IMG/VR virus record: IMGVR_UViG_3300020162_001876
Span: 32,001 to 96,000 of that record
DNA length: 64,000 nucleotides
DNA from: a virus
Strand: one strand, 5' to 3'
Shown here piece after piece: positions 1 to 52,780 of the stretch (its first letter is position 1; the number at the start of each line of letters is the position of its first letter). The notes under the pieces were generated by a model. It had not been told where the DNA came from and made no database searches. It saw nothing but the letters and a program-made list of their open reading frames with translations. Position numbers and translations under genes: made by a program.

Positions 1-639
1 GGAGACAAGTGCCTAGCCTTAGTAAGAGGGTCAGCAGCTAGTGGATACGAAGAGTGCACCATATTAGGAATGGATCCATCAGGAGTAGCTGTAGTTCAGA
101 ATAAAGATGGAATATCTGATGAAGTATATACTAAAGATCTTAGGCCAATTGGCAGTAAAGCAGTCAATGAAGACGAAACAACAAAAGAATCATTATCATC
201 TACCCCAGGCTTAATGTTTGAAGATAAAGTAACTAAAGACAAATATGTTTATTTAGTTAAAGAAGCTATGAATGAATCTACTGAAAAGAATTTAGTTGAG
301 AAAAAATTATTATTAGATTTAATTGGTGAAGGGTATAAAGGTGCTTATCTAAATGAAGCTACCGCTATGAAAGCAGCTAAAACTGCTATTAAAGAGCGAG
401 AAACTTTAATGAAAGAAAATGTTAAAAAAGGTCAAGCTAAAGTAGGTGGTTTAGAAAAACAAGTAGCTAATTTAAAAGCTGAAATGGCTAAACTAATTGA
501 TAATCCTGAAATGAGAGGTGAATTATCAAACTATACTGCTAAATTAGAAAAAGCTGAACAAGTATTAGAAAAATTAAAAGCAGCATTAGAAAAATCTTCT
601 CCTAAAAAAGAAAAGAAAGAAAAAAAAGATGACGAATAA
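1..639 (+). CDS. Hypothetical protein, 5'-partial (frame open from base 1); Lys/Glu-rich coiled C-terminus, probable internal head protein
   Basis: Frame 1 has no stop from 1 to the ORF-track ATG at 70; several LxE-type motifs (MFE, MNE, LVE, LNE). Confidence 0.6.
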   Translation, partial: GDKCLALVRGSAASGYEECTILGMDPSGVAVVQNKDGISDEVYTKDLRPIGSKAVNEDETTKESLSSTPGLMFEDKVTKDKYVYLVKEAMNESTEKNLVEKKLLLDLIGEGYKGAYLNEATAMKAAKTAIKERETLMKENVKKGQAKVGGLEKQVANLKAEMAKLIDNPEMRGELSNYTAKLEKAEQVLEKLKAALEKSSPKKEKKEKKDDE

Positions 640-2365
640 TATCGAACTTTTAAAAAACCATCTTTATAAACTAATTAAGGAGGAACTTGAAGATGAAAAT
701 CCTGATGAGAATCCTACTGGGAATGTATCCTTAAAAGATATTACTATTGGCTATAGTATTATAACAGATGATCCTAATAAAGTAGAAAAATCTATAAATA
801 ATTTAGATAACTATGGTGATAAACAAAGACAAGCTGTTACTATAGCTCAACATATAAAAAAATTATCAGGAGGAGAATCCAAAACAATGAAACTTGTACC
901 TTCAGGTAACGCCGCAGGTCGTAATAATATTGTTAAATGGTCTTTAACTAATGTTTGGTCTAAATTAAATAAACAAGAACGTTTAACTAAATTAGATCAA
1001 GTATTTAAAGCATATAGTACTGAAGGAAAAGATATTGGTGAAGCTTTAAAAACTATCATTTTAAAATTTGATAAAGAAGCAGATTTATCTGATGATACTA
1101 AAATAAAAGAATATATAGCTAATTTAGAAGCTAGTAGTCCTATTTTTACTAAAGTTGGAGGGGGTAATAATATTGGTTATCCTATATTTAGGAAAGGTTA
1201 TTTTTATCCTGCTTTTACTCAAAAAGAGCTTGAAAGATCTTCTTTAAGAAAAGGTAATGAATATACTATTGAAGATAAAGATGGTAAATCAGAATTTGTT
1301 TTCTTAGTAAAAAATAATCCCTTAGTTGATGTTAATATGGGTAATACTGACGCTTATAGAGATTTACTTAAAAGAATAGCTAAAGATGCTGGAGAAAAAT
1401 TAAACACCCTTTCCAAACAAGTATTCTCAGATACTGGAGAAGATGCAAGTGCACCTACTAAAGCAGCTCCTATTAAAGAACCTTCATCTGAAAAATCTAA
1501 TTTTATTAAGACATTTTCTGATGATGAAGGGGCACCTGATGAAGATAGCGCAGATTTATTTTACGCTACCATATTAGGGGATTTCCCTGGAGCAGAAATT
1601 ACAGATAATAAAATATCAGTTAATGATATAACACCTGCTGAGAAAAAAGATTTGATTAACAGATATTTAAAATTTCAACAATCCAATAAACTTTACGAAA
1701 ATAAACTACCAATGAAAGATCAATTAAAAGGACAATTAACTTCTATAATTAAGGAAGTTCTTTTAGAGAAAAAATTAACTCCTGCTAAACTTAAAAAAAG
1801 AAATAAAAACGCTGAAAAAATAAAAAAAGCAAATCCTAAAATGGATAAAGGAGAGGCTTTTGCTATTGCTACTAAACATTTAAAAGAAGGAGAAGGATCT
1901 CTTAAAAATTGGAAAACTGAACCTGTTAAATGGGATAGTGTAAAACCTGATGATTTTATAGCGGATGGTCCTAATGTTGGAGAAGTTTCTCAAGTTATAA
2001 GTAATAGTAGAAGTGGACTTGAATTAAAACGAGTTTGGACCAACTCTAAAAAGTACCCAGTAGGCGAAGAGTTTTTTATTAAACATGATCATGAAGCTAT
2101 GAAAGATGGAAAAGATAATAACATATTTAAAGTAACTAACTATATTAAAGAACCTAACTCACTATCAGAAAGTAATACATCAATGGATGATATTTTATTA
2201 GCTTTTCAAGCTGCTTTAGATATTGAAGATGATGTTAAGCAAGAAGAAGCTTTAAAAGCAGTTTATAATGAATTAAAAAATAAAGTAAAAACTGGAGCTA
2301 GTAATTTATATCAAAAAGCTAGAACAAGTTTTGCTAAAAGTCAAGGTATAGATTTAGATGAGTAA
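629..2365 (+). CDS. Multi-module hypothetical protein, probable internal head protein
   Basis: N-term LYKLIKEELEDE leader and a second internal leader MKDQLKGQLTSIIKEVLLE. Confidence 0.6.
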   Translation: MTNNIELLKNHLYKLIKEELEDENPDENPTGNVSLKDITIGYSIITDDPNKVEKSINNLDNYGDKQRQAVTIAQHIKKLSGGESKTMKLVPSGNAAGRNNIVKWSLTNVWSKLNKQERLTKLDQVFKAYSTEGKDIGEALKTIILKFDKEADLSDDTKIKEYIANLEASSPIFTKVGGGNNIGYPIFRKGYFYPAFTQKELERSSLRKGNEYTIEDKDGKSEFVFLVKNNPLVDVNMGNTDAYRDLLKRIAKDAGEKLNTLSKQVFSDTGEDASAPTKAAPIKEPSSEKSNFIKTFSDDEGAPDEDSADLFYATILGDFPGAEITDNKISVNDITPAEKKDLINRYLKFQQSNKLYENKLPMKDQLKGQLTSIIKEVLLEKKLTPAKLKKRNKNAEKIKKANPKMDKGEAFAIATKHLKEGEGSLKNWKTEPVKWDSVKPDDFIADGPNVGEVSQVISNSRSGLELKRVWTNSKKYPVGEEFFIKHDHEAMKDGKDNNIFKVTNYIKEPNSLSESNTSMDDILLAFQAALDIEDDVKQEEALKAVYNELKNKVKTGASNLYQKARTSFAKSQGIDLDE

Positions 2366-3587
2366 TTTAGATATAAAATTCTTAATTAGAGAAACTCTAG
2401 AGTTAATATTACAAGAAGACAATTCAAAACAACTTCAAGAAAATGTTTTATTAACTGAAGATAAAGTCTCTAAAAACTTACAATACCATTTAGATAAAGG
2501 CATTCCATTACATGAGAATGCTTTTAGATATGGTACTGAGGCCCAACTTCAATTATTTAAAGAAGTTAGAAAACTCTACAATGAGGAAAAATTATATCTG
2601 AATCCTGAAGATAGATGGTTAATTGAAAATACTGACATTGGGAACTATGGTATTTATGAAGACCAATTTGTGGCTTTAGATGTACCAATGGTTGAAGAAG
2701 AAACTAATCCAACTGATAAAATTACTATGGATGTTCCTTTATTTATTCGTATGTTAGAGTACGCTAAAGAAGATGCTAAAACAGATATGGATTTACACTC
2801 GGTAACTGAAAAAGCATTAGATTTAGGTACTGAAGGTAAAACTTTAACTATGAATGATTATGCTACTATAGTAGGTGATCAATCTTTAAATGAAGTAATT
2901 GATTTTAACTTTTATAATTATGTTCCTCATTCTTTTTCACCTGATACTAATGCCTTAAATAAAGAAGAGCATGAAGTTATGATGAAAGATTTAAGAAAGG
3001 AAAGAATGGGTCTTGTAGATTATATTAAATTTGCGGGTTCTATGATAAATAATGAACCTATATATAAAAGTATTTTTAATAAATTAGCTAATTCTAATAA
3101 GAAAAAAATAGAGTTTGCAATAGATCAAAATGAAATTTTAAAATATCAAGATGAAACTAATTTAGATCCTATTAAACTTCAAAAATTTAAAGCTTTTTAT
3201 GAAAAATATAAAGAAATATTCCCTAGCTGGGCTTCTGAAAATGAAAGATTGTATAAAGATGTAATGCAAGCATTAAACCCTTCTTTAAATGAAGCTAAAT
3301 ATCAAGGTAAAGAAGTATCTTTAAATAAACCTAAGCGTGGTGGTTCTAAAAAATTCTATGTTTATGTTAAAAATGGAGATAAAGTTAAAAAAGTACAATT
3401 TGGTGCAGCTGGTGGAGGACAAAATTTAGCAGTTAAAATTAGAGATCCTAAAGCTAGAAAAGCATTCGCTTCTCGTCAAAACTGTGATAAGAAAAAAGAT
3501 AAAACTACTCCTGGATACTGGTCTTGTAATATAGGACGTTATTGGAAATCATTAGGTGGAGGTTCAAACTTTAGCGGATACTGGTAA
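2358..3587 (+). CDS. Multi-module hypothetical protein, probable internal head polyprotein
   Basis: Leader FLIRETLELILQE; modules separated by SLNE; basic C-terminal module with KVQFG...F.SRQNC...YWSC. Confidence 0.65.
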   Translation: MSNLDIKFLIRETLELILQEDNSKQLQENVLLTEDKVSKNLQYHLDKGIPLHENAFRYGTEAQLQLFKEVRKLYNEEKLYLNPEDRWLIENTDIGNYGIYEDQFVALDVPMVEEETNPTDKITMDVPLFIRMLEYAKEDAKTDMDLHSVTEKALDLGTEGKTLTMNDYATIVGDQSLNEVIDFNFYNYVPHSFSPDTNALNKEEHEVMMKDLRKERMGLVDYIKFAGSMINNEPIYKSIFNKLANSNKKKIEFAIDQNEILKYQDETNLDPIKLQKFKAFYEKYKEIFPSWASENERLYKDVMQALNPSLNEAKYQGKEVSLNKPKRGGSKKFYVYVKNGDKVKKVQFGAAGGGQNLAVKIRDPKARKAFASRQNCDKKKDKTTPGYWSCNIGRYWKSLGGGSNFSGYW

Positions 3588-3649
3588 TGGAAAATTTAAA
3601 CGAAAAAGAAAAACGTACGAATTGGTGGGAACCTATAACTAAATAAATT

Positions 3650-3991
3650 ATGATAAAATTAAGCAACCTATTAAACGAATCTCAGGATGAAATCTACCAT
3701 TTAGATGGTGTCCTTATAACAGATGGAGCAATACGTAATCAAAAAGATATCTTATCTGATATTCGCTCTTTACTTGCTGTTACTATTGTACGTAGTATAG
3801 ATATGGAAAATGACCCTACTTCAAAATATGATAGAACTAGAATTGAAGTAAAAATAGACCCATACCCTTATTCAAAACAAGAAAATATTAGTAAAGAGGC
3901 TATAGCTAAAAAAGTATCAGAAAGTATCAGAAAAGTGCCTGGTGTAATAGGATTTAGAAGTTCTGATGAAATATCTGCAACAGGAATATAA
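3650..3991 (+). CDS. Hypothetical protein with MIKLSNLLNE leader
   Basis: ORF track; leader motif. Confidence 0.65.
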   Translation: MIKLSNLLNESQDEIYHLDGVLITDGAIRNQKDILSDIRSLLAVTIVRSIDMENDPTSKYDRTRIEVKIDPYPYSKQENISKEAIAKKVSESIRKVPGVIGFRSSDEISATGI

Positions 3992-4254
3992 TGAAGCCTT
4001 ACCAAGAAATTCTAAATGGTAATTCTCGTTTACGTGAATTTAAACTTGATATAGATAATGATGAATTAAAATGGCATAGAGATAAAAAAGATCGTTATGT
4101 TACTATATTAGAAGGAGAAAATTGGCAATTTCAAAAAGATAATGAATTACCTTTAGCTCTTCAAAAAGGAGACACTATATTTATACCAAAAGAAACATAT
4201 CACAGGGTGATAAAAGGTACAACAGATTTATTAATAACTATAATAGAAAAATAA
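3991..4254 (+). CDS. Small cupin-fold protein
   Basis: WHRD...ILEG...GDTIFIPKETYHRV matches the two cupin motifs. Confidence 0.7.
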   Translation: MKPYQEILNGNSRLREFKLDIDNDELKWHRDKKDRYVTILEGENWQFQKDNELPLALQKGDTIFIPKETYHRVIKGTTDLLITIIEK

Positions 4255-4985
4255 TGTTAGAATTAACACTATCACAAATAAGAGATAAAATAGGTATGTT
4301 TCCTGTTAGATTTAAACATGATCCTAAAATGACTTATTATTTAAATAATGCTCAAAATAATGATTATGGGTTTTTTAAAGATAAAAACAATATTACTAAA
4401 AAGAAATTTTTTAAAGATGTGATAAGTATTAATGGTAAAGAAATTAAACTTAAATCTTCACTTGAAGAATTAAAAAAATTAATTAGAGAAGAAATTGAAG
4501 CTATTAAAGTTTCTGAACCTTTAACTTTTGAAGGTAATCCATTAGAATTTATTCTAAATAAATATTCTTCTTTAAATGATACTATGATAGACTTATTAAC
4601 ACCTTCATTTAGAGATTATTTAACAGGAATATTTATAATAGCCCCTAAACCTACTACATTTAGAATTTTATTACATAATAATCAAGAATTTTATTTAATA
4701 TATGCTCCTGATGGTTATGTAGCAAAAATAGCTGGTAAAAAATATGATTTAAGAAACTTATCTGAAGAGGAGTATGCTATTAATTCAATATCACAACTTT
4801 TAGAATTAGGTATACCTCCAGCAGCTGAAGGACCAAATTCTGAAATTGATAATCAAGCTGATTTACAAGGAGAAACTCCTGCTGAAACTCCATCTGAAGA
4901 AACTACACCTACTGAAGAGACTCCACCTGAAAACTTAGCAGAGTTAAAACTTCCTTTAAGAATAAAATTAATCCGAAAAAAATAA
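4254..4985 (+). CDS. Hypothetical protein; internal LKKLIREE motif and E/T/P-rich tail
   Basis: ORF track; TAATG coupling to upstream gene. Confidence 0.6.
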   Translation: MLELTLSQIRDKIGMFPVRFKHDPKMTYYLNNAQNNDYGFFKDKNNITKKKFFKDVISINGKEIKLKSSLEELKKLIREEIEAIKVSEPLTFEGNPLEFILNKYSSLNDTMIDLLTPSFRDYLTGIFIIAPKPTTFRILLHNNQEFYLIYAPDGYVAKIAGKKYDLRNLSEEEYAINSISQLLELGIPPAAEGPNSEIDNQADLQGETPAETPSEETTPTEETPPENLAELKLPLRIKLIRKK

Positions 4986-4992
4986 AAATAAG

Positions 4993-5023
4993 TTTGGCTC
5001 TTTAAAAGAGCCTTCTTATATTG
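4993..5023 (+). promoter_or_regulatory. Early/middle promoter (TTTG-N20-TATATT) with 17-bp palindromic spacer
   Basis: TTTG 4993-4996; GGCTCTTT-A-AAAGAGCC 4996-5012; TATATTG 5017-5023. Confidence 0.75.
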
Positions 5024-5043
5024 TATAAATTTAACTATATGTT

Positions 5044-5841: not shown

Positions 5842-6066
5842 ATGAAACTAAACGAATACCTTAAAGAAGTACAAGAAGTCCAAATTAAAATTGGAGATGA
5901 TTTCACCTTAAGAGGTGATATAGGTGTATTTAAAAAAGGAGAGATGGTTACAATTACTAATAAAAAATTAGTAGGTAATGATATTGAATTAACTTTATCA
6001 AATGGTAAAGGTAAAGAAGATAAGTTTTATTTAGATAAAAACGATGACTTTGAAGAATTAGGATAA
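5842..6066 (+). CDS. Small beta-rich hypothetical protein with MKLNEYLKE leader
   Basis: ORF track; leader motif. Confidence 0.6.
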   Translation: MKLNEYLKEVQEVQIKIGDDFTLRGDIGVFKKGEMVTITNKKLVGNDIELTLSNGKGKEDKFYLDKNDDFEELG

Positions 6067-6524
6067 TGAAACTAACCTTATTAAAAGAAATTATTAAAGA
6101 AGAATTAAAAAAGCTCTTCGAAATAGAACCAGATCCTAATTCAGAACCTGAACTTAATATAGGAGATAAAATAGAACCAGAACCTGAAGCAGAACCTACT
6201 CCTGAACCTGATCAACCTGAATCTACTTTACCCTCAGAACAACCTCTTCAAAACATTTCAAAACAAGAGGCTGCTCAAAAGATAAGAGAAACTAAAGGAA
6301 GAATGTTTACTGTTACTTTTATTAAAAAGTCTAATGGGCAAAAAAGAACAATGAATGCTCGTTTAGGTGTTAAGGCTTATTTAAGAGGAGGAGTACTCCC
6401 ATATGATCCTAATACTAAAGGATTAATACCTTGCTATGATGTCCAAACAAAAGACTATAGAATGATTAATATTCAGGGTATAGTTAATTTAAAAACTGGT
6501 GGAGTAGAATATAATGTAGTATAA
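6066..6524 (+). CDS. Leader + PE-rich linker + SH3/WYL-like (DUF2693-like) domain
   Basis: FTVTFIKKSNGQKRTMNARLG...YDVQTKDYRMINI. Confidence 0.6.
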   Translation: MKLTLLKEIIKEELKKLFEIEPDPNSEPELNIGDKIEPEPEAEPTPEPDQPESTLPSEQPLQNISKQEAAQKIRETKGRMFTVTFIKKSNGQKRTMNARLGVKAYLRGGVLPYDPNTKGLIPCYDVQTKDYRMINIQGIVNLKTGGVEYNVV

Positions 6525-6542
6525 AATAAACTAATTAGTAAG

Positions 6543-6574
6543 TTTGGCTCCTAATAGGAGCCTTCTTATATTTA
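6543..6574 (+). promoter_or_regulatory. Early/middle promoter with palindromic spacer
   Basis: TTTG; GGCTCCT-AAT-AGGAGCC 6546-6562; TATATTTA 6567-6574. Confidence 0.75.
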
Positions 6575-6594
6575 AAAGTTAAAAATTATACAAT

Positions 6595-13964: not shown

Positions 13965-13996
13965 TTTGGCTCCTGTAAGGAGCCTTATTATATTAA
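13965..13996 (+). promoter_or_regulatory. Early/middle promoter with palindromic spacer
   Basis: TTTG; GGCTCCT-GTA-AGGAGCC 13968-13984; TATATTAA 13989-13996. Confidence 0.75.
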
Positions 13997-14019
13997 TATA
14001 TTATAAAAATTAAAGTTAT

Positions 14020-14550
14020 ATGAAAATAGGTTTATGTGGTACAGTAAGTGTTGGAAAAACAACATTAGTTAATGCTTTAAAAGAATTACCACAATTTAAA
14101 GATTATTATTTTGCTACTGAACGTAGTAAATATTTAAGAGATTTAGGCATTCCTCTAAATACTGATTCAACATTAAAAGGTCAGACAATATTCTTATCAG
14201 AACGTTGTGCTGAATTAATGCATGAAAATATGATTACTGATAGAACAGTTATTGATGTAATGTCATTTACACAAGCTGCTAAATCAATAAAAGTAGCAGA
14301 TAAAATTTCATATGAGGAATATGCTCGTAATTTCATTAATGAGTATGATTATATTTTTTATGTATCTCCTGATGGGGTAGAAATAGAAGATAATGGAGTA
14401 AGAGAAACTAATGCTGAATATAGAGATCAAATTGATTTTCTTATTAAAGGTATTCTTACAATTTACTCACATAGAATCAAAAATTTACATACAATATCAG
14501 GTAGTACTGAGGAAAGAATTAAACAAATAATAGAAACCATTTCTTTATAA
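14020..14550 (+). CDS. P-loop nucleoside/nucleotide kinase (NadR/AAA_28-like)
   Basis: GTVSVGKTT; ITDRTVID; EDNGVR. Confidence 0.75.
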   Translation: MKIGLCGTVSVGKTTLVNALKELPQFKDYYFATERSKYLRDLGIPLNTDSTLKGQTIFLSERCAELMHENMITDRTVIDVMSFTQAAKSIKVADKISYEEYARNFINEYDYIFYVSPDGVEIEDNGVRETNAEYRDQIDFLIKGILTIYSHRIKNLHTISGSTEERIKQIIETISL

Positions 14551-14591: not shown

Positions 14592-15629
14592 ATGAATTTT
14601 AACGACAATTTTGATTTAAAAAAAGCTAAATCTTTTTTATTATCTGAAAATTTTCAAATGGATGAAACAGAAAATTTGGAAGAAATGGCATCCTTTTATA
14701 GTATCAAACCTGATGTAGATGAAGACGAAGCTAAAGAAGCTATAGCAGCTATAAAAGCTAAATTAAGACCTGGAACTGCTTTTTACCAAACATTAGACTC
14801 ATTAGAAAAAACTGGTGAAGCTGATTATATAAAATTTAAAAAAGAAACTGGTAAAGATATTGCTACTTGGAATAAACCTGAAACTAGAGCTATACTACAA
14901 AATGACGGTCCGTTAGCTCAATATTTAAATGCGGGTTCATCTCCATTAGCTAATAGATCAGGTCGTCCTAAAATGGATAAAGAAATGGGTGATAAAGAAG
15001 AAACAGATCCTAATCAATTAAGTTTTGATTTAGAAGAAAATGAAATGTTAGATGAAATGGCTACATTTTATAAAATCAAACCAGGTATGGAAGATGAAGC
15101 TAAAGATGCTATCGCAGCTGAAAAAGCTAAACTAAGACCTGGAACTAATTTTTATAATACTTTAGATTCATTAGAAAATACTGGTGAAGCTGATTATATA
15201 AAATTTAAAAAAGCTACTATTAGCCCTGAACTTCCTCAAGGAAAAGATGTAGCAACTTGGAATAATCCCGCGACTAGAGGAGTATTAGAAAAAGATGGTC
15301 CTTTAGCTCAATTTCTTGATGCAGGTTCATCACCTAGCGTTAATAAATCAGGTCGTCCTAAAAGTGAAAAAGGTGAAGAAACAGCAACCCCTAAAGCTCC
15401 TACTAAACCTAAAGAAGATAAGATTAAAATTACTACTCCTAAAACCTCATCGACATCAGCTGAAAAATCACCTGCTAAAGAAAGAGATTTAGCTCAAGAA
15501 ATAAAAGATGCTGAAGCTGAAGTGAAAAAATTAGGAACAGCCGCTTTAAAAAGTCAAGATCCAAAAGATATGGCTAAAGCTAAAGCAGCGACTGCTAAAC
15601 TAAAAGCTTTAAGAGCTGAGGTAAAATAA
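14592..15629 (+). CDS. Probable internal head protein with tandemly duplicated ~95-aa domain and Lys/Ala-rich tail
   Basis: Two copies MA.FY.IKP...KLRPGT.FY.TLDSLE.TGEADYIKFKK...SGRPK, each after L(E/D)E. Confidence 0.7.
   Translation: MNFNDNFDLKKAKSFLLSENFQMDETENLEEMASFYSIKPDVDEDEAKEAIAAIKAKLRPGTAFYQTLDSLEKTGEADYIKFKKETGKDIATWNKPETRAILQNDGPLAQYLNAGSSPLANRSGRPKMDKEMGDKEETDPNQLSFDLEENEMLDEMATFYKIKPGMEDEAKDAIAAEKAKLRPGTNFYNTLDSLENTGEADYIKFKKATISPELPQGKDVATWNNPATRGVLEKDGPLAQFLDAGSSPSVNKSGRPKSEKGEETATPKAPTKPKEDKIKITTPKTSSTSAEKSPAKERDLAQEIKDAEAEVKKLGTAALKSQDPKDMAKAKAATAKLKALRAEVK
14685..15362 (+). repeat. Intragenic direct repeat (copies start at 14685 and 15057)
   Basis: Shared nucleotide blocks such as ACTGGTGAAGCTGATTATATAAAATTTAAAAAAG. 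Confidence 0.85.
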
Positions 15630-17341: not shown

Positions 17342-19270
17342 ATGGTAGATACTTCATTCTTTGGTAGATTACAAAGATTATTTTCAACAGATGTAATAAT
17401 AAGAAATGTTGGAGGTAATCAATTAAAAGTAATGGATACAGATCGTATCCAACAACTTGGTACTATCCAAACAAACTCACTTTATGATAGATATAATAAA
17501 GTTTATACTACTACAGGTGGACTAAATTTTAATTATAATAATGATTTATCATATCCTACTACACGTATTCAGTTATACACTGATTATGAATTAATGGATA
17601 GTGATTCAATTATTGCTTCTACATTAGATATATTAGCTGATGAAACTTGTTTAAGAAATGATTTAGGAGAAGTATTACAAATACGATCTTCAGATGAAAC
17701 CATACAAAAAATACTTTATAATTTATTTTATGATGTATTAAATATCGAGTTTAATCTTTGGTCTTGGACTCGTAATATGTGTAAGTATGGCGATTTTTAT
17801 CTTAAATTAGAAATATCAGAGAAATTTGGTGTATATAATGTAATACCATTTTCTTCTTATTCTATTATTAGATTAGAAGGTAAAAATCCTGAAAAGCCGC
17901 AAGAAGTAAAATTCAAATATGATCCAACTTTTACATCTCAACAATCACCATTAGGTCCTCAAGTTATTTCTAATTATAATCGCAATACTAATGAAGGTAT
18001 AATTTTTGATAATTATGAAATGGCTCACTTCAGATTATTATCTGATTTTAATTATTTACCTTATGGTAGATCTTATATTGAGCCTGCTCGTAAAATTTTC
18101 AAACAATTAACTTTAATGGAAGACGCGATGTTAATACATCGTATTGTAAGAGCACCTGAAAAACGTACATTCTTTATTAATGTTGGTAATATTCCACCTA
18201 ATGAGGTAGAAAATTACATGCAAAAGACTATTAATAAGATGAAGAAAACTCCGCATATTGATCATCAAACTGGTGAATACAATTTAAAATATAATATGCA
18301 AAACATTCTTGAGGATTTTTACATTCCAGTAAGAGGTGGAGATGCAACTACAAGAATTGAGACTACAAAAGGATTAGAATACACTGCTATAGAAGATGTT
18401 ACTTATTTAAGAGATAAATTATTCGCTGCTCTTAAAGTTCCAAAAGCTTATTTTGGATTTGAAAAAGATTTAACAGGTAAAGCAACTTTAGCTGCTGAAG
18501 ATATTCGTTTTGTAAGAACTGTAGAGAGAATTCAAAGAATATTAATATCTGAATTAACCAAAATTGCTTTAGTTCATTTATACTCACAAGGATATGATGG
18601 GGAGTCATTAACTAATTTTGAATTATCATTAACAGTTCCTTCAATTATATATGAACAAGAAAAAGTAGCCTTATTAAAAGAAAAATCTGGATTAGCTACT
18701 GAATTATTACAAAATAAAATTGTTCCTACTGACTGGATTTATGATAATATTTTCCATTTTAGTGAAGATCAATATGATGAATATAGAGATTTAATACTTG
18801 AAGACGCTAAACGTAAGTTTAGAATAGATCAAATTGAAACTGAAGGTAATGATCCTTATAAAACAGGTGAAGCTTATGGTACGCCACATGCTTTAGCATC
18901 ACTTTATGGTTCTAGTAGATATCCTGGTACAGAAGGTGTGCCAAAAGGGTATAATGAAGATGGTGATACTTATCCTGATCAAGTATTAGGACGTCCTAAA
19001 GAAAGATCATCAAATATTAATACTCAAGATAGTGCTCTAGGTAAAGATAGATTAGGTAGAATTGGAATGAAAAAAGATGATTCTGAATCTAAAGGATTTA
19101 AAACTTCTTATAAAGGTGGTTCTCCATTAGCTTTAGAAAATGTTGCAACACAAGCAATTTATCATCAAATTTCAAATAATTTAAAAAATATGTTCCCTCA
19201 ACGTAAAATAAAATTGTATGAAGAGAGCGATTTATTAAATGAAGATAACCTTTTAAAAGAAGATAAATAA
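17342..19270 (+). CDS. Portal protein (T4 gp20-like)
   Basis: L.LMEDAMLIHRI.RAPE.R.F.I.VGN.P; EDFYIP.RG; ALKVPK. Confidence 0.95.
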   Translation: MVDTSFFGRLQRLFSTDVIIRNVGGNQLKVMDTDRIQQLGTIQTNSLYDRYNKVYTTTGGLNFNYNNDLSYPTTRIQLYTDYELMDSDSIIASTLDILADETCLRNDLGEVLQIRSSDETIQKILYNLFYDVLNIEFNLWSWTRNMCKYGDFYLKLEISEKFGVYNVIPFSSYSIIRLEGKNPEKPQEVKFKYDPTFTSQQSPLGPQVISNYNRNTNEGIIFDNYEMAHFRLLSDFNYLPYGRSYIEPARKIFKQLTLMEDAMLIHRIVRAPEKRTFFINVGNIPPNEVENYMQKTINKMKKTPHIDHQTGEYNLKYNMQNILEDFYIPVRGGDATTRIETTKGLEYTAIEDVTYLRDKLFAALKVPKAYFGFEKDLTGKATLAAEDIRFVRTVERIQRILISELTKIALVHLYSQGYDGESLTNFELSLTVPSIIYEQEKVALLKEKSGLATELLQNKIVPTDWIYDNIFHFSEDQYDEYRDLILEDAKRKFRIDQIETEGNDPYKTGEAYGTPHALASLYGSSRYPGTEGVPKGYNEDGDTYPDQVLGRPKERSSNINTQDSALGKDRLGRIGMKKDDSESKGFKTSYKGGSPLALENVATQAIYHQISNNLKNMFPQRKIKLYEESDLLNEDNLLKEDK

Positions 19271-19311: not shown

Positions 19312-20169
19312 ATGGCTAATATAAAGCATAACAAATATAAAAACACTGGAATATTATTCGAATTGCTGGTAAGAAAAATTACAGCAGATACTATGTCTAG
19401 TCATGATTCTAAAGCTGTATCTTTAATTAAAAAGTATTTTGTTAATACTGAATTAGCTAAGGAAAATAAGCTTTACCAATCTATATCTAAATCACAAAAC
19501 ATTAGTGAGGCTCAAGCAGAGTCGATTCTTTCAACCATTTTGGAGGTAAGTAAATCCTTAGATAAAACACAATTATCTAAGGAAAAATACAATTTGATTA
19601 AAGAAATTAAATCAAATTTTGATATTGATGACTTTTTTAAGGCTAAGATTAATAATTATAAATTATTATCTTCAACATATACATTATTAGAGGCCAATAT
19701 ATCTCCTACTAAAAATTTAGAGGATATTCTTAGTTCTAAAATGAATATCCTAGAACATATAGCTCAAATTAATAATATAAACTCACCACTACCTTCTGTA
19801 AGTGAATTTGAAACTTTAGATAAAGGAACTCGTGCGTTAGTTTATAAAATAATGTTAGAAAAATTTAATAATAGATTTAATACTTTATCTAATGATCAAA
19901 AAGATGTATTAAAAGAATATATTAATCATATTTCTAATACTACTAATTTAAAAAAATATGTAGATTCTAAATTTACATTATTAAAAGAATCTCTTTTAAA
20001 ATTTCTGCCTAAAATAGAAGATACTACTATTAAAATCAAAGTAAATGAGACAATAAATCTTATTAACCCTATTTTAGAATCTAAAACTCTAAAAGACGAT
20101 AATATAGTTACATTATTACAGTATCAAGAATTATATAGTGAATTAATAAAAATTCATAATGAACAATAA
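19312..20169 (+). CDS. Hypothetical head-module protein (possible prohead core component)
   Basis: Position between portal and protease; helical. Confidence 0.6.
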   Translation: MANIKHNKYKNTGILFELLVRKITADTMSSHDSKAVSLIKKYFVNTELAKENKLYQSISKSQNISEAQAESILSTILEVSKSLDKTQLSKEKYNLIKEIKSNFDIDDFFKAKINNYKLLSSTYTLLEANISPTKNLEDILSSKMNILEHIAQINNINSPLPSVSEFETLDKGTRALVYKIMLEKFNNRFNTLSNDQKDVLKEYINHISNTTNLKKYVDSKFTLLKESLLKFLPKIEDTTIKIKVNETINLINPILESKTLKDDNIVTLLQYQELYSELIKIHNEQ

Positions 20170-20830
20170 TTTAAAAGAACTAGTATTAAAACATTTAGCT
20201 GAACTTCTAGATGAAGAATCAGCTTCCAGTGGTGCTGGTGGATATTTAACTAAAGCTTTTGTTAGAAAACCAACTAATCAAGACAAAAATTCACCTACAG
20301 GGTTTGAAAAAATGCCTAAATCTGGTGATGTTTATAAAAAAATGGGATTTAGAATTATTAAGCCTAATGAAAGAATTGATGCTAAAGATTTATGGAAGGG
20401 ACAACATTTAGAAGAAAAAATGGGATACCCTACTCCTAAAGCTTTTAGAAAAATTAAAAAACAACATGAAATTTCTAAATCGGGGCATGAAGATTTACCT
20501 AACCCTGATAAATACTTTGAACTAGTGAAATTTAAAATAGTTGAACCTGAAAAAGAAAAAAAAGAACCAATTAATGAAGTTCGTTACTCTCAATTTAAAA
20601 ATGAAACTAGGACTAGAAAACCTCAAGAGCAATTACATATAGGAATTAAAAAAATTCAACATACTTTAGACGAAGTAAATAAATTAGTTGAGTTTGCTAC
20701 TAGAATGAAAACAGAATTAAAAGGTGATGCCGAACAAATGAATTACTTAAAACGTACTCATAATGCATTAATTAAAATCAATGAAAAAATACAATCAATT
20801 AACGAAAAAATTAAAGGTTTAACAGAATAA
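20159..20830 (+). CDS. Hypothetical head-module protein with LKELVLKHLAELLDE leader
   Basis: ORF track; leader motif. Confidence 0.65.
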   Translation: MNNNLKELVLKHLAELLDEESASSGAGGYLTKAFVRKPTNQDKNSPTGFEKMPKSGDVYKKMGFRIIKPNERIDAKDLWKGQHLEEKMGYPTPKAFRKIKKQHEISKSGHEDLPNPDKYFELVKFKIVEPEKEKKEPINEVRYSQFKNETRTRKPQEQLHIGIKKIQHTLDEVNKLVEFATRMKTELKGDAEQMNYLKRTHNALIKINEKIQSINEKIKGLTE

Positions 20831-20993: not shown

Positions 20994-22280
20994 ATGACAG
21001 TACAAAATTTATACACGCAATACTTAGATGGTAAGGTAACCAAACAAAAATTTCTTTATGAAGTACGTAGAGATCAAAATCTTACTATGATATCTCCCAG
21101 CAATTCATTTGAAGATGTTGTTAAGATATTAAAAAATAAATCTATTATATCAGAAAAAGCTCATAAAGAAGCTAAACAATCTACTGGAAAGCAAGAAGTT
21201 GATATTATATCTAAAACTATTGATATGGTTAACCCATATGAGTATGCTAATGGTATGGATTATGAATTAGGAATTATAGATGTTCCTGTAACTGAGGGGG
21301 ATTTAGATGAAGAAAATGTACTTAAAGTACAGAAAAAAGTATTAGCTAATCTTACTAAAAATCCTTCATATTATACTGAAAAATTGTATGGTAGAGTTAA
21401 ATTCGATGGTGATAAAACTATTGAAATTAACAAAAAATCAATGGATGCTATTGGTAAAGGTAAAAATGCTAAAATAATCAGAGAAGGATTAGGAGACAAA
21501 CAATACTTTGATGCTCTCCGCAATTCAGATGCAAATAGTATAGAATCTGCTAAAAAAGTTTTAAAAAGAAAATTTAAAGATTTAGGTGATAAGAATATAG
21601 AATATTTAGCTAAAGAATGGGCTAAAAGAGCATTAGATGAACATGGGCAATATGCTGATAAAGTAGCTGATGTAAACCCACTTTCACAAAATGAATTAAA
21701 AGAAAATTACACTCCATTTTCTATAAATGAAGAACAAGAAGCCGTACTCCAAAGATATGCTGAAGCTACAGGTATACCATTAGACAATTTAAAAAATATG
21801 GTTGCTGAAGCTAGAGCAAAGAAAGCTAAAAAAGATTATGATGGAGATGGAACAATAGAATTACCTGAAGAAGAATATATGGGGTCTCGTAATAAATCTA
21901 TTAAACAATCTATGGCAGAAGATATAGATTTAGGTCATCAAGATAATGAACCTCGTATGATTAAAGGTGAATTATATCAAATAGCTAAACAAGCTACTGA
22001 ATTGTACAAAATGATTGATTCCGTAGATAATATGGGAGAAATTGATTTTCCTCATTGGTGGCAGGCAAAAATTGTTTTAGCTAAAAATTATTTAACTGGA
22101 GCTAAAGATTATTTGGATAGTGCTTTAACAGTAGGTAATGAAGAAGGAGAAATGGATGAAGCAGTTGCTTTAAAAGATAAAGCAGGTAATACTCAATATG
22201 CTAAAGATTCAACTGAAGCTTCAAATATAGAAAGAGCAGCTCGAACTAAAGGTGTAATCTTAACTAAAATGAATGTATAA
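20994..22280 (+). CDS. Multi-module probable internal head protein with DxDGDG loop
   Basis: DYDGDGTIE motif; modules bounded by ISE/IRE/LDE/LKE/INE/MAE/MDE. Confidence 0.65.
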   Translation: MTVQNLYTQYLDGKVTKQKFLYEVRRDQNLTMISPSNSFEDVVKILKNKSIISEKAHKEAKQSTGKQEVDIISKTIDMVNPYEYANGMDYELGIIDVPVTEGDLDEENVLKVQKKVLANLTKNPSYYTEKLYGRVKFDGDKTIEINKKSMDAIGKGKNAKIIREGLGDKQYFDALRNSDANSIESAKKVLKRKFKDLGDKNIEYLAKEWAKRALDEHGQYADKVADVNPLSQNELKENYTPFSINEEQEAVLQRYAEATGIPLDNLKNMVAEARAKKAKKDYDGDGTIELPEEEYMGSRNKSIKQSMAEDIDLGHQDNEPRMIKGELYQIAKQATELYKMIDSVDNMGEIDFPHWWQAKIVLAKNYLTGAKDYLDSALTVGNEEGEMDEAVALKDKAGNTQYAKDSTEASNIERAARTKGVILTKMNV

Positions 22281-22897
22281 TGAGTAAATCATTATTAATA
22301 GAATACGCCTTATTTACACCTAAATCAACAGTATTAACTGAAGGTAAAGGTGATAGAAACTTAGTAGTTCAAGGTGTTATTCAAAGAGCAGATGCTAAAA
22401 ACCAAAACGGTAGAATTTACCCTAAAGATATTTTAGCACGTGAAGTTGAAAAATACATTGAAGGGCCTGTATCTGAAAACAGAGCATTAGGTGAATTAGA
22501 TCACCCAGAATCAATGGTAATTAATTTAAAAAACGTATCTCATAACATCAAACAATTATGGTGGGATGGAGATGATTTAATGGGTAAAGTAGAAGTATTA
22601 CCAACACCTTCAGGTAACATCTTAAAAGAATTATTCTTAAATAAAATTACAGTAGGTATTTCTTCCCGCGGTATGGGTTCAGTTCAACCATTAGGAGAAG
22701 GTACAGTTGAAGTACAAGACGATTTCGAACTATTATGTTGGGATTTTGTTTCTACACCATCAACACAAGGGGCTTTTATGACTCCAACAGGATTAAGCGA
22801 AGGATATAAACCACAACATACAAGCAAATACTCAAAAATTAACTCACTAGTATCAGACATTATCTGTTCTCAATCAGGTATATGTTGTATTAGATAA
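22280..22897 (+). CDS. Prohead core protease (T4 gp21-like)
   Basis: NQNGRIYP; ALGELDHP; VSH; GISSRG.GS; D.VSTPS. Confidence 0.95.
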   Translation: MSKSLLIEYALFTPKSTVLTEGKGDRNLVVQGVIQRADAKNQNGRIYPKDILAREVEKYIEGPVSENRALGELDHPESMVINLKNVSHNIKQLWWDGDDLMGKVEVLPTPSGNILKELFLNKITVGISSRGMGSVQPLGEGTVEVQDDFELLCWDFVSTPSTQGAFMTPTGLSEGYKPQHTSKYSKINSLVSDIICSQSGICCIR

Positions 22898-22914: not shown

Positions 22915-23157
22915 ATGGAAAACTTTAACTTTAAAAAATATCTTTCTGAAAGTAAATTATTAAAAGAGGATTTACAAAGCGACTTATTGTTAGCTAATGA
23001 TGGACCTTTAGGAACATTTGGAGTAATACAGAGAGCTATAGAAATGGCAGCTAGTAATAAAGTATCAACAGAAGAGTTATCAAACGCACTATATGAAGCC
23101 CTAACTGAAATAGGAGCTCTCACAGATGTAGAGATCCCGTCAACAGAATTCCGATAG
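22915..23157 (+). CDS. Small protein with MENFNFKKYLSESKLLKE leader
   Basis: ORF track; leader resembles T4 capsid-targeting sequence. Confidence 0.65.
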   Translation: MENFNFKKYLSESKLLKEDLQSDLLLANDGPLGTFGVIQRAIEMAASNKVSTEELSNALYEALTEIGALTDVEIPSTEFR

Positions 23158-23348: not shown

Positions 23349-24287
23349 ATGGCAAACGAAAACACTAAAATTTTTAGTGAAGCAATCGCTGAAGCAAAAG
23401 CTATTAGAGAAACCGCAATGGCTAATGCTAAATTAGCTCTTGAAGAAGCTTTCGCTCCTCGTATCCAAGAAATGATGAACAATAAACTTGCATCATTATC
23501 TGAAGATGAAGGAGAGATAGAAGAAGAATTTAAATCATCTAATGGAGCTATGCCTGGGACTGATTCAATGGAAGAAATTTCATTAGAAGAGTTACTAGCA
23601 GAATTAGAAGGTCTTGAAGAAGGTCAAGAAGAAGAACAACCAATAGAAGAAAACGAACTTTTTGAATTCGAAGAAGAAGATACAGTAGCTGAAATTACAG
23701 TTGAAGATCTTAAAGATATCGTTAGAGAAGTAGTATCAGATTTATTAGGAGGTTCAGAAGAAACAGACGAAGAAGAAATGGCTGGCGAAGATGGAGAAAT
23801 GGATGGAGAAGAAGAAATAACAGATGAAGAAGATGAATTAAGTTTAGAAGAAATTTTAGCTGAACTTGATTTAGAAGAAACTTATGCTTATGATGATGTT
23901 CCTGAAGACAATCCAGATGATATTGAAGATGATAAAGAACTTGAAGAAGCTATGTCAACTATTGCGGAATTACGTTCTGAACTTAACGAAGTTAATCTTT
24001 TAAATTCTAAATTACTTTATGTTAACAAGTTGTTTAAATCTAAAAATTTAACAGAAGCTCAAAAAATAAAAGTTATTAACGCTTTTGATAGAGCTGAAAC
24101 AGTTAAAGAGTCTAAAAACATCTATGAAACGTTACAAGAATCATTAACAGCTACTCAAATTAAGAAGAATCCAATTAAAGAATCTCTTTCATTTGCTTCT
24201 AAACCAGCAGGGGTCGCTGATAGAAAACCAATCGTTGAAAATAACGATTTTATTGCAAGAATGCAAAAACTTGCAGGAATTATTTAA
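23349..24287 (+). CDS. Prohead core scaffold protein (T4 gp22 position)
   Basis: Highly acidic coiled-coil protein directly upstream of MCP; ends RMQKLAGII. Confidence 0.85.
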   Translation: MANENTKIFSEAIAEAKAIRETAMANAKLALEEAFAPRIQEMMNNKLASLSEDEGEIEEEFKSSNGAMPGTDSMEEISLEELLAELEGLEEGQEEEQPIEENELFEFEEEDTVAEITVEDLKDIVREVVSDLLGGSEETDEEEMAGEDGEMDGEEEITDEEDELSLEEILAELDLEETYAYDDVPEDNPDDIEDDKELEEAMSTIAELRSELNEVNLLNSKLLYVNKLFKSKNLTEAQKIKVINAFDRAETVKESKNIYETLQESLTATQIKKNPIKESLSFASKPAGVADRKPIVENNDFIARMQKLAGII

Positions 24288-24323: not shown

Positions 24324-26006
24324 ATGTCAAATTTAGTAAATTCACTATTAGAGACTGCTAACCCATATACATCTATTCAAAAAGATGCAGCTAGATTAGC
24401 TGGAAAATGGGGTAGATCAGGTCTTTTAGAAGGTATTTCTAATGAAACTGATAAGTCTAACATGGCTATCATCTTAGAAAACCAAGCAAAACAATTAGTA
24501 GTAGAGTCTTCAAACACAGGTACTGGAGCATCTTTTACTGCGGGAACAGGTGAGCAATATGCAGCTGTAGCATTACCATTAGTACGTAAAGTATTTGGTC
24601 AATTAGCTGCTAAAGAATTTGTTTCTGTTCAACCAATGAGCTTACCAGCTGGTTTAGTATTCTTCTTAGATTTCCAATATGGAACTGATGTAGCTCCATT
24701 CTCAACAGCAGCAGGTACTAACTCAATGTACGGTAATAACTCAGCTAACTTCGGTAACGAAAGAGCAGGTGGTTTATATGGTGCAGGTAGATTCGGATAT
24801 TCATCTAACCAATTCTCAGGATCTCATGCAAGTGGTACAATTGGGCAAGCTGCTTCAACAAAAGCAACTCTTACATGTACAACAGCTTCATGGAGTGATA
24901 TTTCTTTTGATGCTGATTTATCTGGTTCTGTAGCTGCAGGTACTATTAAAGCTTTAACATTACCAACTTCAAGTATTACAAGTTGTGATGTAAACGCTAT
25001 TCGTGCTTTTGCAGTAAGTGGTTCAGGTGCTTTCACACCAGCTAAACAATTACCTCAATTTACACAATTAAATTTAGTTCCTGGTAATATTACTTATTTC
25101 TTTACTGCTTCTCAAGCTGAGGTTACAACAGCTGTAGCTGCTTTAACTACTATATTCTATAGTAAACAAACTGCTGATAACGCAAGAGGTGACTTCGAAG
25201 ATGCTTCAGGTGCTGGATATCCAAACGCTGAATCATCTACTGAGATTAAAATTCCTGAGATTAACGTTCAAATGAGATCAGAAGCTATTGTTGCTAAAAC
25301 AAGAAAATTAAAAGCTCAATGGACTCCAGAATTCTCTCAAGATTTAAACGCTTTCCATTCATTAGATGCTGAAGCTGAATTAACTTCTATCTTATCAGAG
25401 TACATCTCATTAGAGATTGATCTTGAAATCTTAGATATGTTAATCCAAAACGTTCCAACTAACCAAGTTGAAGTATGGTCGGCTAAAATTGGTAACCAAT
25501 TAGTGAATGGTACTATGCAATCAAACACATCAGGTGCTTACTACACTCAAATGTCTTGGTTCCAAACTTTAGGAATTAAATTACAAAAGATTTCTAACAT
25601 TATTCACCAAAGAACTTTAAGAGGTGGTGCTAACTTCATGGTAGTATCTCCAACTGTAGCTACAATCTTAGAATCAATCCCAGGATTCGCTGCTGATACA
25701 GATGGTGATGTAACTAAAGCTTCATACGCGTTTGGTGTTCAGAAAATCGGTGCTTTAAACTCTAGATATAAAGTTTACAAAAACCCTTACATGTTAGAAA
25801 ACACTATCTTGTTAGGATTTAGAGGTAACCAATTCTTAGAATCAGGTGCTGTTTATGCTCCATATGTTCCACTTATCATGACTCCATTAGTGTATGATCC
25901 AAATACTTTCACTCCTAGAAAAGGTATCATGACTCGTTACGCTAAGAAAATGGTAAGACCAGAATTCTATGGTAAAGTATTAGTAGCTGATACTAACATT
26001 ATCTAA
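24324..26006 (+). CDS. Major capsid protein (T4 gp23-like)
   Basis: VQPMSLPAGLVFFLDF; KTRKLKAQWTPE..QDL.A.H.LDAEAEL; YAPYVPL; GIMTRY. Confidence 0.97.
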   Translation: MSNLVNSLLETANPYTSIQKDAARLAGKWGRSGLLEGISNETDKSNMAIILENQAKQLVVESSNTGTGASFTAGTGEQYAAVALPLVRKVFGQLAAKEFVSVQPMSLPAGLVFFLDFQYGTDVAPFSTAAGTNSMYGNNSANFGNERAGGLYGAGRFGYSSNQFSGSHASGTIGQAASTKATLTCTTASWSDISFDADLSGSVAAGTIKALTLPTSSITSCDVNAIRAFAVSGSGAFTPAKQLPQFTQLNLVPGNITYFFTASQAEVTTAVAALTTIFYSKQTADNARGDFEDASGAGYPNAESSTEIKIPEINVQMRSEAIVAKTRKLKAQWTPEFSQDLNAFHSLDAEAELTSILSEYISLEIDLEILDMLIQNVPTNQVEVWSAKIGNQLVNGTMQSNTSGAYYTQMSWFQTLGIKLQKISNIIHQRTLRGGANFMVVSPTVATILESIPGFAADTDGDVTKASYAFGVQKIGALNSRYKVYKNPYMLENTILLGFRGNQFLESGAVYAPYVPLIMTPLVYDPNTFTPRKGIMTRYAKKMVRPEFYGKVLVADTNII

Positions 26007-42095: not shown

Positions 42096-42105
42096 AATAT
42101 TTATA
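42096..42105 (+). promoter_or_regulatory. Putative late promoter AATATTTATA
   Basis: Recurrent intergenic motif. Confidence 0.6.
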
Positions 42106-42119: not shown

Positions 42120-42821
42120 ATGATATATTTAAAAGAAATAATTAAAGAAATTCTTATACAAGAGTTTACTCAAACTGATTTTAATAAAGCAAAAACCTGG
42201 GATGAAATTGTAAACTTATTTTCTCAATATAAAAGAGATTTAACCCCTTTTACTAAATATAAAGAAGAACATTCATTTTTAGGAAGCGGAAAAAACGGAA
42301 AAGTATTTAAAATAGAAAACTCAGATAAAGTTATTAAAATTACTAAAAATATATATGATATTTATATAGCTGATGATTTATTAGGAACCTCATATAAACA
42401 TTTACCTAAAATTTATAACGTAGTTGGATATGAAGAAGGAGTAAAAAACCCTTATTCTAAAAGAAGCAAATACGCAGGTGTTATAGTAATGGAATATTTA
42501 AATGAACTTCCAAAAGACTTATTCAAATTATTTTTAATGATGTTCCCTAATTATAATAAAAAAGGATTTTGGATGACAGATTTTTTAGATGGTATTTTAG
42601 ATAGTAATGAAATAGGACAGTTATTAATAGAACTAGACCCTACAATTGAATCTACTATTAAAAAATATGATTTTTTAAATCAATTAGAAGGAATAAAAAA
42701 TGATTTAAATCAAGCATTTGATTTAGAAGAAATAAGTGACCAACTAGACCCAACTCCAGGTAATTTCTTAATGAGAGGAAATACAATAGTATTTACTGAT
42801 ATAGTACAATCTGATAATTAA
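42120..42821 (+). CDS. Protein kinase-like protein with N-terminal LKEIIKEILIQE leader
   Basis: LGSGKNGKVF, VIKIT, HLPKIY, IVMEYL, DPTPGN, FTDI. Confidence 0.8.
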   Translation: MIYLKEIIKEILIQEFTQTDFNKAKTWDEIVNLFSQYKRDLTPFTKYKEEHSFLGSGKNGKVFKIENSDKVIKITKNIYDIYIADDLLGTSYKHLPKIYNVVGYEEGVKNPYSKRSKYAGVIVMEYLNELPKDLFKLFLMMFPNYNKKGFWMTDFLDGILDSNEIGQLLIELDPTIESTIKKYDFLNQLEGIKNDLNQAFDLEEISDQLDPTPGNFLMRGNTIVFTDIVQSDN

Positions 42822-47895: not shown

Positions 47896-47901
47896 TAAGT
47901 T

Positions 47902-51419: not shown

Positions 51420-51425
51420 TAAATT

Positions 51426-52022: not shown

Positions 52023-52033
52023 TTAAAAAATTA

Positions 52034-52043
52034 AATATTTATA
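52034..52043 (+). promoter_or_regulatory. Putative late promoter AATATTTATA
   Basis: Recurrent intergenic motif. Confidence 0.6.
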
Positions 52044-52087
52044 ATAAACTAGTTTTTTAATAATAGTTAAACATAAATAATTAAAAT

Positions 52088-52780
52088 ATGTCTCATATCA
52101 AATTGCAAGATCTTCTTAATGAAATCGATTGGATAATTAACTCTAAAACAGCCTCTAGTGGAGGAGGTGGTAAAAGATTTATCCCTACAGAAGGAAAAGT
52201 TCCTAGTAAAGTATTTACAAGTTTACCTGACCATTTTAAATTAAGAGGAAGTAGAGTATTAATATCTCCTGATGCTATTATTGCTATAAATTCTATCCAA
52301 AGAGGTAGAGGTGGGGCGACTAATTATAAAGAATTAGTAGGCAAAATCCAACAAGCTTTTGCTGTAAAAAGAGAAAAAGCAGACCTTAATATAGGACCCG
52401 CAGATACTACTAGTGATTTATCTACTTTTAAAAAAGGATTAATAGGTAGACTAGACTCAGCTGTTATAAATGGTAAAGAATTTAAAGTATGGAATGGAGA
52501 AGGTAAAGCTAAAGAAGATGGTAGTTTTATATTTCCATTAAGTCAATTTAAAACTTCTTCCTTACAAGAAAATGAAGAAGGTCTTACTTCACAACTATAT
52601 ACCCTTATTAGTAATGAAATGAGATTAGGTAAAAGAGCAAATATGACTGGGGCATCCCATCATATAGAAGAACATGAAAAAGCAGAAAAAGCAGTTGAAA
52701 ATTTTCTTAGAATGAACCCATCTATGGAAGAACAACGAGATAGAATTGAAGATCATTTTTATAAACAACTATTTAAATAA
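52088..52780 (+). CDS. Hypothetical protein with MSHIKLQDLLNE leader and internal SLQE site
   Basis: ORF track; leader motif. Confidence 0.65.
   Translation: MSHIKLQDLLNEIDWIINSKTASSGGGGKRFIPTEGKVPSKVFTSLPDHFKLRGSRVLISPDAIIAINSIQRGRGGATNYKELVGKIQQAFAVKREKADLNIGPADTTSDLSTFKKGLIGRLDSAVINGKEFKVWNGEGKAKEDGSFIFPLSQFKTSSLQENEEGLTSQLYTLISNEMRLGKRANMTGASHHIEEHEKAEKAVENFLRMNPSMEEQRDRIEDHFYKQLFK

Follow-up and report, generated by a model that had tools for sequence, protein, structure and literature searches.

The window analysed here is a stretch of 64,000 nucleotides (bases 32001-96000) of a single 110,998-bp contig, the IMG/VR virus record IMGVR_UViG_3300020162_001876. By its sequence, the source is an uncultured phage related to T4, with a genome of 29% GC in which the + strand carries nearly all genes. 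Among cultured phages, Flavobacterium phage vB_FspM_immuto is the closest to it, with 56% identity between the capsid proteins. The subject of this analysis is a set of short N-terminal leaders, each ending in a hydrophobic residue, any residue and glutamate (φ-x-E), carried by proteins that are otherwise dissimilar. An earlier interpretation of the same DNA, made from the letters without database searches (hereafter the sequence-only reading), had listed ten open reading frames (ORFs) with such a leader, and all ten were found at their positions with the N-termini that had been quoted.

Three classes of leader were distinguished in this genome and a fourth in its relatives. The consensus is MIKLSNLLNE for class I, MKKSELKxIIKEEIxxxLxE for class II, ME(N)NFDφKKYLxE with ..LLKE after it for class III, and ..RMQKLAG(I/L)ITE for class IV, which occurs in relatives only; classes II, III and IV are all present in vB_FspM_immuto. 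The leaders end in LNE, FE, QE, SE, KE or DE, with L, I, F or Y before, and their length of about 10-20 residues with aliphatic-x-Glu at the end is that of T4-type tags. The leader genes are listed below by window position, negative positions lying upstream of the window start.

1-639, + strand: C-terminal part of a 244-amino-acid protein (genome 31905-32639, designated -95), whose class II leader MKNQTLKNIIKESITDYLSE lies just upstream of the window
629-682, + strand: class II-like leader MTNNIELLKNHLYKLIKE of a 578-amino-acid protein (gene 629-2365)
2358-2417, + strand: class II leader MSNLDIKFLIRETLELILQE of a 409-amino-acid protein (gene 2358-3587)
3650-3679, + strand: class I leader MIKLSNLLNE of a 113-amino-acid protein (gene 3650-3991)
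5842-5868, + strand: possible short leader MKLNEYLKE (gene 5842-6066), a weak candidate by motif
6066-6122, + strand: class II leader MKLTLLKEIIKEELKKLFE (gene 6066-6524), with a Pro/Glu-rich linker after it
14592-14648, + strand: class III variant leader MNFNDNFDLKKAKSFLLSE (gene 14592-15629)
20159-20215, + strand: N-terminus MNNNLKELVLKHLAELLDE of a head-module protein (gene 20159-20830), helical and rich in Lys, Glu and Leu, a weak candidate for a portable tag
22915-22968, + strand: class III leader MENFNFKKYLSESKLLKE of an 80-amino-acid protein directly 3' of the protease (gene 22915-23157)
42120-42164, + strand: class II leader MIYLKEIIKEILIQE of a 233-amino-acid protein (gene 42120-42821)
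52088-52123, + strand: class I variant leader MSHIKLQDLLNE of a 230-amino-acid protein (gene 52088-52780)
Beyond the window: leader genes at genome 12447 (= -19553), 31905 (= -95) and 96372 (= 64372)

Evidence that these leaders move between proteins was obtained from related phages. More than 580 relatives of the prohead protease were found in IMG/VR, and about 100 loci (designated by L and a number) were fetched around the protease and three leader genes, giving 1264 unique proteins in 254 body families. Among these proteins, similar N-terminal 28-mers occur on non-homologous bodies in 1226 pairs, compared with 80 pairs for internal 28-mers (about 15-fold), and a single N-terminal cluster covers about 55 body families. 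By pattern, 125 of the 1264 proteins and 55 of the 254 body families carry a leader. The N-termini of 3650, 6066, 14592, 22915, 42120 and 52088 are each common to 3-15 non-homologous body families. In the slot after the protease, closer relatives have MENFD(L/I/F)KKYL(A/S)E(G/S)xLLKE and then unrelated bodies of 74-190 amino acids.

Leaders are also exchanged between orthologues. In the 42120 family, the body is constant from FTQTDFNKAKTW onwards and is fronted by either class II (..ILIQE or ..NILNE) or class III (MENSFNLKKFLAEGKMLKE), the switch falling exactly after φ-x-E. A head-module family swaps class III (..RLKTEGE) and class IV (MNNQFKRMQKLAGLITEGE) before AAYEYEKGKEAGEK (junction ..TEGE/AAYEYEKGK), and in L002 and L003 the C-terminal domain of 52088 reappears with a class III leader in front. 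Since class III is exchanged with class IV as well as with class II, we infer that the classes share one function. Taken together, the pairs, the 55 families and the swaps describe a tag that, like those of the T4 type, is transferable and the only conserved part of its carriers; the sequence-only reading had called it portable, and rightly so. Whole-gene paralogy as the cause of the shared N-termini was ruled out, as no leader proteins proved to be paralogues in an all-against-all BLAST of this genome. The bodies had been described as unrelated, which holds at the BLAST level within this genome, but some have domains in common in relatives.

A compositional origin of the resemblance was considered: Lys, Glu, Ile, Leu and Asn are favoured in an AT-rich genome, as are AT-rich codons at the starts of genes. 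The commonest residues here include L, I, K, N and E, bare [LI]xE in the first 22 residues is just 1.4-fold enriched, and the terminase and an early gene provide look-alikes that are described below. Of 134 proteins, 17 have a more specific pattern, φ-x-x-φ-φ-x-E, which was picked post hoc, within their first 22 residues, whereas internal windows contain it in 3.1% of cases (4-fold, p 1e-6). In the same test, 50 kb of Staphylococcus phage K, which is AT-rich with equal GC and has no S77 protease, gave 0.72-fold, whereas the head regions of T4 and immuto gave 3.4-fold and 14.7-fold. Composition is not the explanation, because phage K lacks the enrichment that T4 and immuto have; it is largely refuted, and we give it almost no credence. 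Within-genome N-terminal pairs scoring at least 35 numbered 12, whereas internal segments gave 4 such pairs and shuffled N-termini 1, a modest excess.

It was the relatives, and not these pair scores, that gave the decisive signal. Position matrices were built from the leaders of relatives alone and are thus out-of-sample for this genome; their matches are denser at N-termini than in internal sequence by about 100-fold for class I, 9-fold for class II and 17-fold for class III. The class I matrix retrieves 3650 and 52088, the class II matrix 6066, -95, 42120, 2358, 629 and -19553, and the class III matrix 22915 and 64372. Among 1549 ORFs there are 36 occurrences of the class III core, of which 36/36 fall within the first 12 residues. 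When 50,697 phage records were searched by tblastn with a class III leader of 22 residues, no match was obtained, the query being too short or filtered, and the distribution of leaders among cultured phages therefore could not be mapped by that search.

The individual leaders differ in how much backing the relatives give them. The class I leader of 3650 scores 31.6 and has 15 partner proteins in 11 non-homologous body families, and that of 52088 scores 23.3 with five partners in four families. Among class II leaders, 6066 scores 23.8 (17 partners in six non-homologous families) and -95 scores 22.7 (four partners in three families). Gene 629, which abuts -95 without a gap, scores 16.8; its leader is kept in orthologues L082-L085, and its partners in two non-homologous body families are weak. 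For 2358, the class II matrix (21.4 at residue 6) is the sole support other than the motif; its orthologues keep the φ-x-E at the leader end, and more distant homologues have other class II leaders. In class III, 22915 has 35 partners in 15 families and 14592 has 16 partners in six non-homologous families. Gene 20159 is part of the late head operon. The helical leaders of its orthologues vary and end in E, and the stretch that comes next, (M/T/E)S-x-(S/T)G-x-G..Y.TKYAF, is conserved.

Several further features of these proteins were observed. Residues 113-180 of the 2358 protein (2694-2897) form a domain of about 65 residues (..DVPLFIRMLEYAKEDAKTDMDLH..) that recurs in varied head-module and leader-bearing proteins of relatives, among them the large protein whose gene precedes that of the protease, and homologues of 629 and 20159. 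Three 2358 homologues (L086:5911-6774, L090:5893-7002 and L091:5863-6951) have a Cys-rich insert, DCGCGCxGKCG, after the class II leader and ahead of the conserved body; the copy in the window lacks this insert. In gene 4254-4985, which has the look of a fusion carrying a tag within it, residues 62-86 (..KLKSSLEELKKLIREEIEAIK) are an internal class II-like leader; in L084 the homologous body has that element (MTKLAILRQLIKEEIEDF..) at its very start. The 14592-15629 protein contains two repeats of about 90 residues (MASFYSIKP..AGSSP), each right after L-x-E/MA, a junction that is kept in relatives, as if the repeats were units of a small polyprotein bounded by cut sites. A Ser/Thr/Gly-rich stretch lies just after the leader at 20216-20260 (20159 family, SASSGAGGY.TKAF) and 52145-52180 (52088, TASSGGGGKRF). 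Its version in relatives is E/MS-TTG-x-GASVTPG..KYAF, and one relative's ORF starts, leaderless, at that Met.

The shared 5' ends could also be a by-product of DNA cassette shuffling, in which promoter and start region act as recombination linkers and the peptide is functionless. T4 has promoter-early stem-loop cassettes that are a precedent for such linker shuffling. Many leader genes begin 12-53 nucleotides past a conserved late motif, and bodies and domains are clearly shuffled among relatives. Against this, synonymous differences (pS) between leaders on non-homologous bodies reach 0.53-0.75 per site, near saturation, with the amino acids kept, although the pN/pS figures are biased by the choice of leaders by amino-acid pattern. 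The near-saturated synonymous sites are therefore evidence against a recently spread DNA cassette. Class-specific residues and the fixed φ-x-E end are also kept where the bodies are no longer recognisably homologous. We consider passive shuffling very unlikely; with the same ascertainment caveat, conservation of the leaders, as judged from these substitutions, is acting on the peptide and not on the DNA.

The late motif itself and the head genes of the window are as follows.

15710: large terminase
17342: portal, Portal_T4 (Gp20), Pfam 7e-68
22280-22897, + strand: prohead protease of the T4 gp21 type (S77), Pfam Peptidase_S77 2e-30, 34% identical to T4 gp21 (E 4e-25)
23349-24287, + strand: acidic scaffold protein of 312 amino acids, assigned from position, cut-site motif density and conserved ends
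24324-24506, + strand: predicted capsid propeptide, residues 1-61, with LLE10, LLE36 and QLVVE61
24324-26006: Gp23-type major capsid protein, Pfam Gp23 1.4e-74
42097-42105, + strand: putative late promoter motif ATATTTATA, also at 14550, 17316, 19276, 20982, 26071, 40478, 52035 and elsewhere

The motif ATATTTATA has 21 copies in the window, 21/21 on the + strand, compared with 8.3 expected on both strands. It sits 12-53 nucleotides before the portal, tube and other structural genes and is probably a late promoter. It lies at the same distances before 14592 (42 nucleotides), 42120 (23 nucleotides), 52088 (53 nucleotides) and -95 (23 nucleotides), the last being the head of the run -95/629/2358, and a variant, ATATTTATT, lies 13 nucleotides upstream of 5842. 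The sequence-only reading had placed several leader genes behind a late motif. This was confirmed and extended, as ATATTTATA is the nearest upstream promoter for 13/13 leader genes and for 84/128 other genes (p 0.0095). A second promoter-like class, consisting of TTTGGC, a GC-rich palindrome and then (C/T)TT(A/C/T)TTATATT, was seen at 5000-5043, 6540-6594, 13965-14019, 52790-52851 and 54665-54738, before genes of replication and nucleotide metabolism, and probably marks early units. At the far-left genome end, CTTCGTATATT cassettes precede small ORFs instead.

The genome encodes the cutting enzyme that a system of the T4 type would use, as the sequence-only reading had supposed, and the S77 protease, the Gp23 capsid protein and the scaffold together form a T4-type set. 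The N-terminus of the protease, MSKSLLIE, resembles MNEPQLLIE of T4 gp21, and the class I leader resembles MAKINELLRE of the T4 gp24 propeptide. The pattern is similar in the N-termini of T4 gp24, gp21 and Alt, although the tags are too short to establish homology. In the capsid protein, the T4 gp23 cut E65/A66 (FLTE/AE) aligns with QLVVE61/S62, and the LxE and E61 sites are kept across relatives. The sequence-only reading had pointed to LLE10 in MSNLVNSLLE; this was rejected as the maturation site, which by alignment with T4 gp23 is E61, and LLE10 may be an extra cut within the capsid propeptide. The scaffold has 26 [LIV]xE sites in its 312 residues, against a proteome density of 1.8% (4.6-fold, p 2e-10), a density that fits a core expected to be degraded.

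The most direct link to the head comes from the end of the scaffold. The class IV leader of relatives has its template in the 12 residues at the scaffold C-terminus, FIARMQKLAGII (24249-24284). Scaffolds of all relatives terminate in F(I/V)ARMQKLAGII, and class IV repeats this motif and adds (I/L)TE. In relatives the scaffold C-terminal motif is reused N-terminally on eight body families. Since class IV copies the scaffold C-terminus, the system is therefore tied to the prohead.

Two further observations concern similar motifs. The portal runs about 155 residues past the Pfam Portal_T4 domain (18800-19270), with a tail ..LFEESxLLNEDNLLKEDK that is kept in relatives down to about 50% identity and resembles the class I leader; in T4, the portal gp20 is not processed (PMC5694885). 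The tail may be either a docking element or a cut site. At several loci (L029:10643-11503, L036:10627-11418, L042:10627-11418 and similar), the product of the gene 3' of the protease starts like class I (MRIKLIDLLKE) and ends like the scaffold (..RLQKLAGIK), so that it bears an address at both ends.

Most leader-gene bodies had no family match in comparisons with Pfam and PHROG. The sequence-only reading had labelled 42120 a kinase. Its family has the invariant motifs GSGKNGKVF (Gly-loop), VIKI (Lys), DPTPGN (D-x4-N) and FTD, and two of its three top neighbour clusters in the ESM Atlas carry PF27024 on 17-23% of members, a lead towards a T7-type kinase. No kinase family was found in Pfam even at E 10, hhalign against T7 gp0.7 was not significant (E 0.23) and covered the Gly-loop and Lys region alone, and an AlphaFold2 model from a 10-sequence alignment was unusable (pLDDT 45). 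The label is therefore unproven. The WYL-like label given to 6066 fared no better: its match to WYL_2 (PF10902) has 16.7 bits, below the cut-off of 26.7 (E 0.009), and its body has a solid match, at 8e-13, to phrog_2267, a family without an assigned function. Candidate cargo of recognisable kind was seen in relatives, where a full Fe/Mn superoxide dismutase (SOD; L087:8822-9523) and a zeta-toxin/AAA_33-type P-loop kinase (L084:1254-2006) each follow a class I leader. The SOD is canonical and has MIKLTDILKE and a linker before Pfam position 1, the match starting at residue 31. The SOD and the AAA_33/Zeta_toxin kinase behind a class I leader show the tag to be an addition to ordinary enzymes.

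These results suggest that the leaders are probably capsid-targeting propeptides of the kind known from T4, which serve in loading the prohead and are then trimmed. Late in infection, a tagged protein would be made with an amphipathic N-terminal helix of 10-20 residues (class I, II or III), which would dock it onto the assembling prohead scaffold and shell. The gp21-type S77 protease would cut behind the final hydrophobic-x-Glu, and would also trim the capsid protein at about E61, degrade the scaffold at its [LIV]xE sites and probably trim itself. The mature body would remain inside the head, and may pass into the next host along with the DNA. Packaging, docking, cleavage, head retention and injection are all drawn by analogy with T4.

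Several points weigh against this interpretation. Only class IV is linked directly, by its sequence, to a head protein, and the cargo of this genome has no leader of that class; classes I-III are tied to the head via exchangeability and the T4 analogy alone. The N-terminal leaders are real, but they form three distinct classes and not the one motif that the sequence-only reading described; eight of its ten carriers are individually supported, while 5842 and 20159 have the motif alone, neither having non-homologous N-terminal partners among relatives, and distant 20159 homologues have a non-hydrophobic residue three before the Glu. The pattern on its own also picks out the terminase N-terminus LKEIIKQEW and DLIKFLSE in an early gene, which are surely not cargo, and the selection bias of the pN/pS figures belongs here as well. 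No virion proteomics was found in the literature for this phage or its cultured relatives (Mel-JY01 and immuto). Finally, the leader genes 42120, 52088 and genome 12447 lie among tail and baseplate genes, not head genes. This location would suit leaders that are general N-terminal helices with no link to the capsid, acting in oligomerisation, in docking to tail, baseplate or membrane, or as enzyme-inactivating pro-segments, and the leaders, which are amphipathic with much Lys and Glu, do resemble the starts of many coiled coils. Such helices would not, however, account for a class IV that matches the C-terminus of the scaffold exactly and is exchanged with class III on one and the same body, or for a junction that is always φ-x-E, the site of a T4-type protease, in a motif found also at the protease and capsid N-termini. 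In addition, the slot directly 3' of the protease holds tagged genes only (L002-L017, the closer relatives with a gene there). We therefore regard a general helix as unlikely, though less so than cassette shuffling, and favour capsid targeting.

In T4, the capsid-targeting sequence (CTS) is found on the internal proteins IPI-III and Alt and as the gp24 propeptide, and is removed by gp21 (MEROPS S77) (PMC3012670, PMC5694885). These propeptides are 10-20 residues long, and that of gp23 has 65 residues (PMC5694885). The phage studied here resembles T4 in having a homologous protease, capsid protein and portal, a short N-terminal tag ending in aliphatic-x-Glu that is the sole conserved part of diverse proteins, variable head-module slots and, as judged from the putative promoter motif, probably late expression. 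It differs in having three classes in one genome (four in the clade) instead of one, in leaders of up to about 20 residues that often contain two cut-site motifs, and in at least 11-13 tagged proteins, about 9% of genes, compared with a handful in T4. Its tagged genes are spread over tail, baseplate and lysis-proximal regions, and the cargo of relatives, known here from sequence alone, includes the Fe/Mn SOD and the zeta-toxin/AAA_33-type kinase.

The giant phages phiKZ and SPN3US have long propeptides on head and ejection proteins, which are cut by an S80 protease at (S/A/G)-x-E (PMC5694885, PMC7411985). There too, many internal head proteins are cut after x-Glu by a gp21-related protease, and the N-termini of diverged paralogues are conserved, with a proposed role in targeting. 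However, those propeptides are mostly longer than 100 residues, are carried by paralogous families and obey another rule at P3, whereas the tags here are short, portable and on non-homologous proteins. A third comparison is with systems that steer cargo into shells of the HK97 fold. SaPI1 CpmB copies the capsid-binding C-terminus of the 80alpha scaffold, the P22 scaffold has a C-terminal coat-binding domain, and encapsulins use cargo-loading peptides. Class IV suggests that here too a peptide matching the scaffold end would steer a foreign protein inside the shell. Unlike those peptides, the class IV copy is N-terminal and followed by a protease site, such that it would be removed after loading, and it is unused on the cargo of this genome. 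No published description of such a multi-class leader system was found in the literature.

A bolder version of the proposal is conceivable, and we advance it tentatively, as doubtful: loading would be through several addresses, with the non-homologous leader classes docking at different prohead sites and class IV at the shell-binding site of the scaffold. Some 10% of the proteome, comprising enzymes such as SOD, a nucleotidase and kinases of nucleotides or of proteins, together with many unknowns, would be loaded into the head and injected as a toolkit for the first minute of infection, the class of a leader would set copy number or position, and internal leaders would mark polyproteins that are cut in the head.

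The CTS of T4 is the textbook case of phage proteins packed with the DNA, and concerns a handful of proteins in T-even phages. What differs from T4 here is probably the several interchangeable tags and the far larger number of tagged proteins. A distant, environmentally common T4-like branch appears to have expanded the CTS principle to interchangeable tags and dozens of cargo families, and the scaffold-copying tag of relatives suggests how docking works. The presence of leaders in the cultured vB_FspM_immuto makes the idea testable. If confirmed, the tags would provide natural clip-off peptides for loading foreign proteins into capsids. They would also amount to a list, readable from sequence, of candidate injected proteins in uncultured phages, possibly including anti-defence and host-takeover factors.

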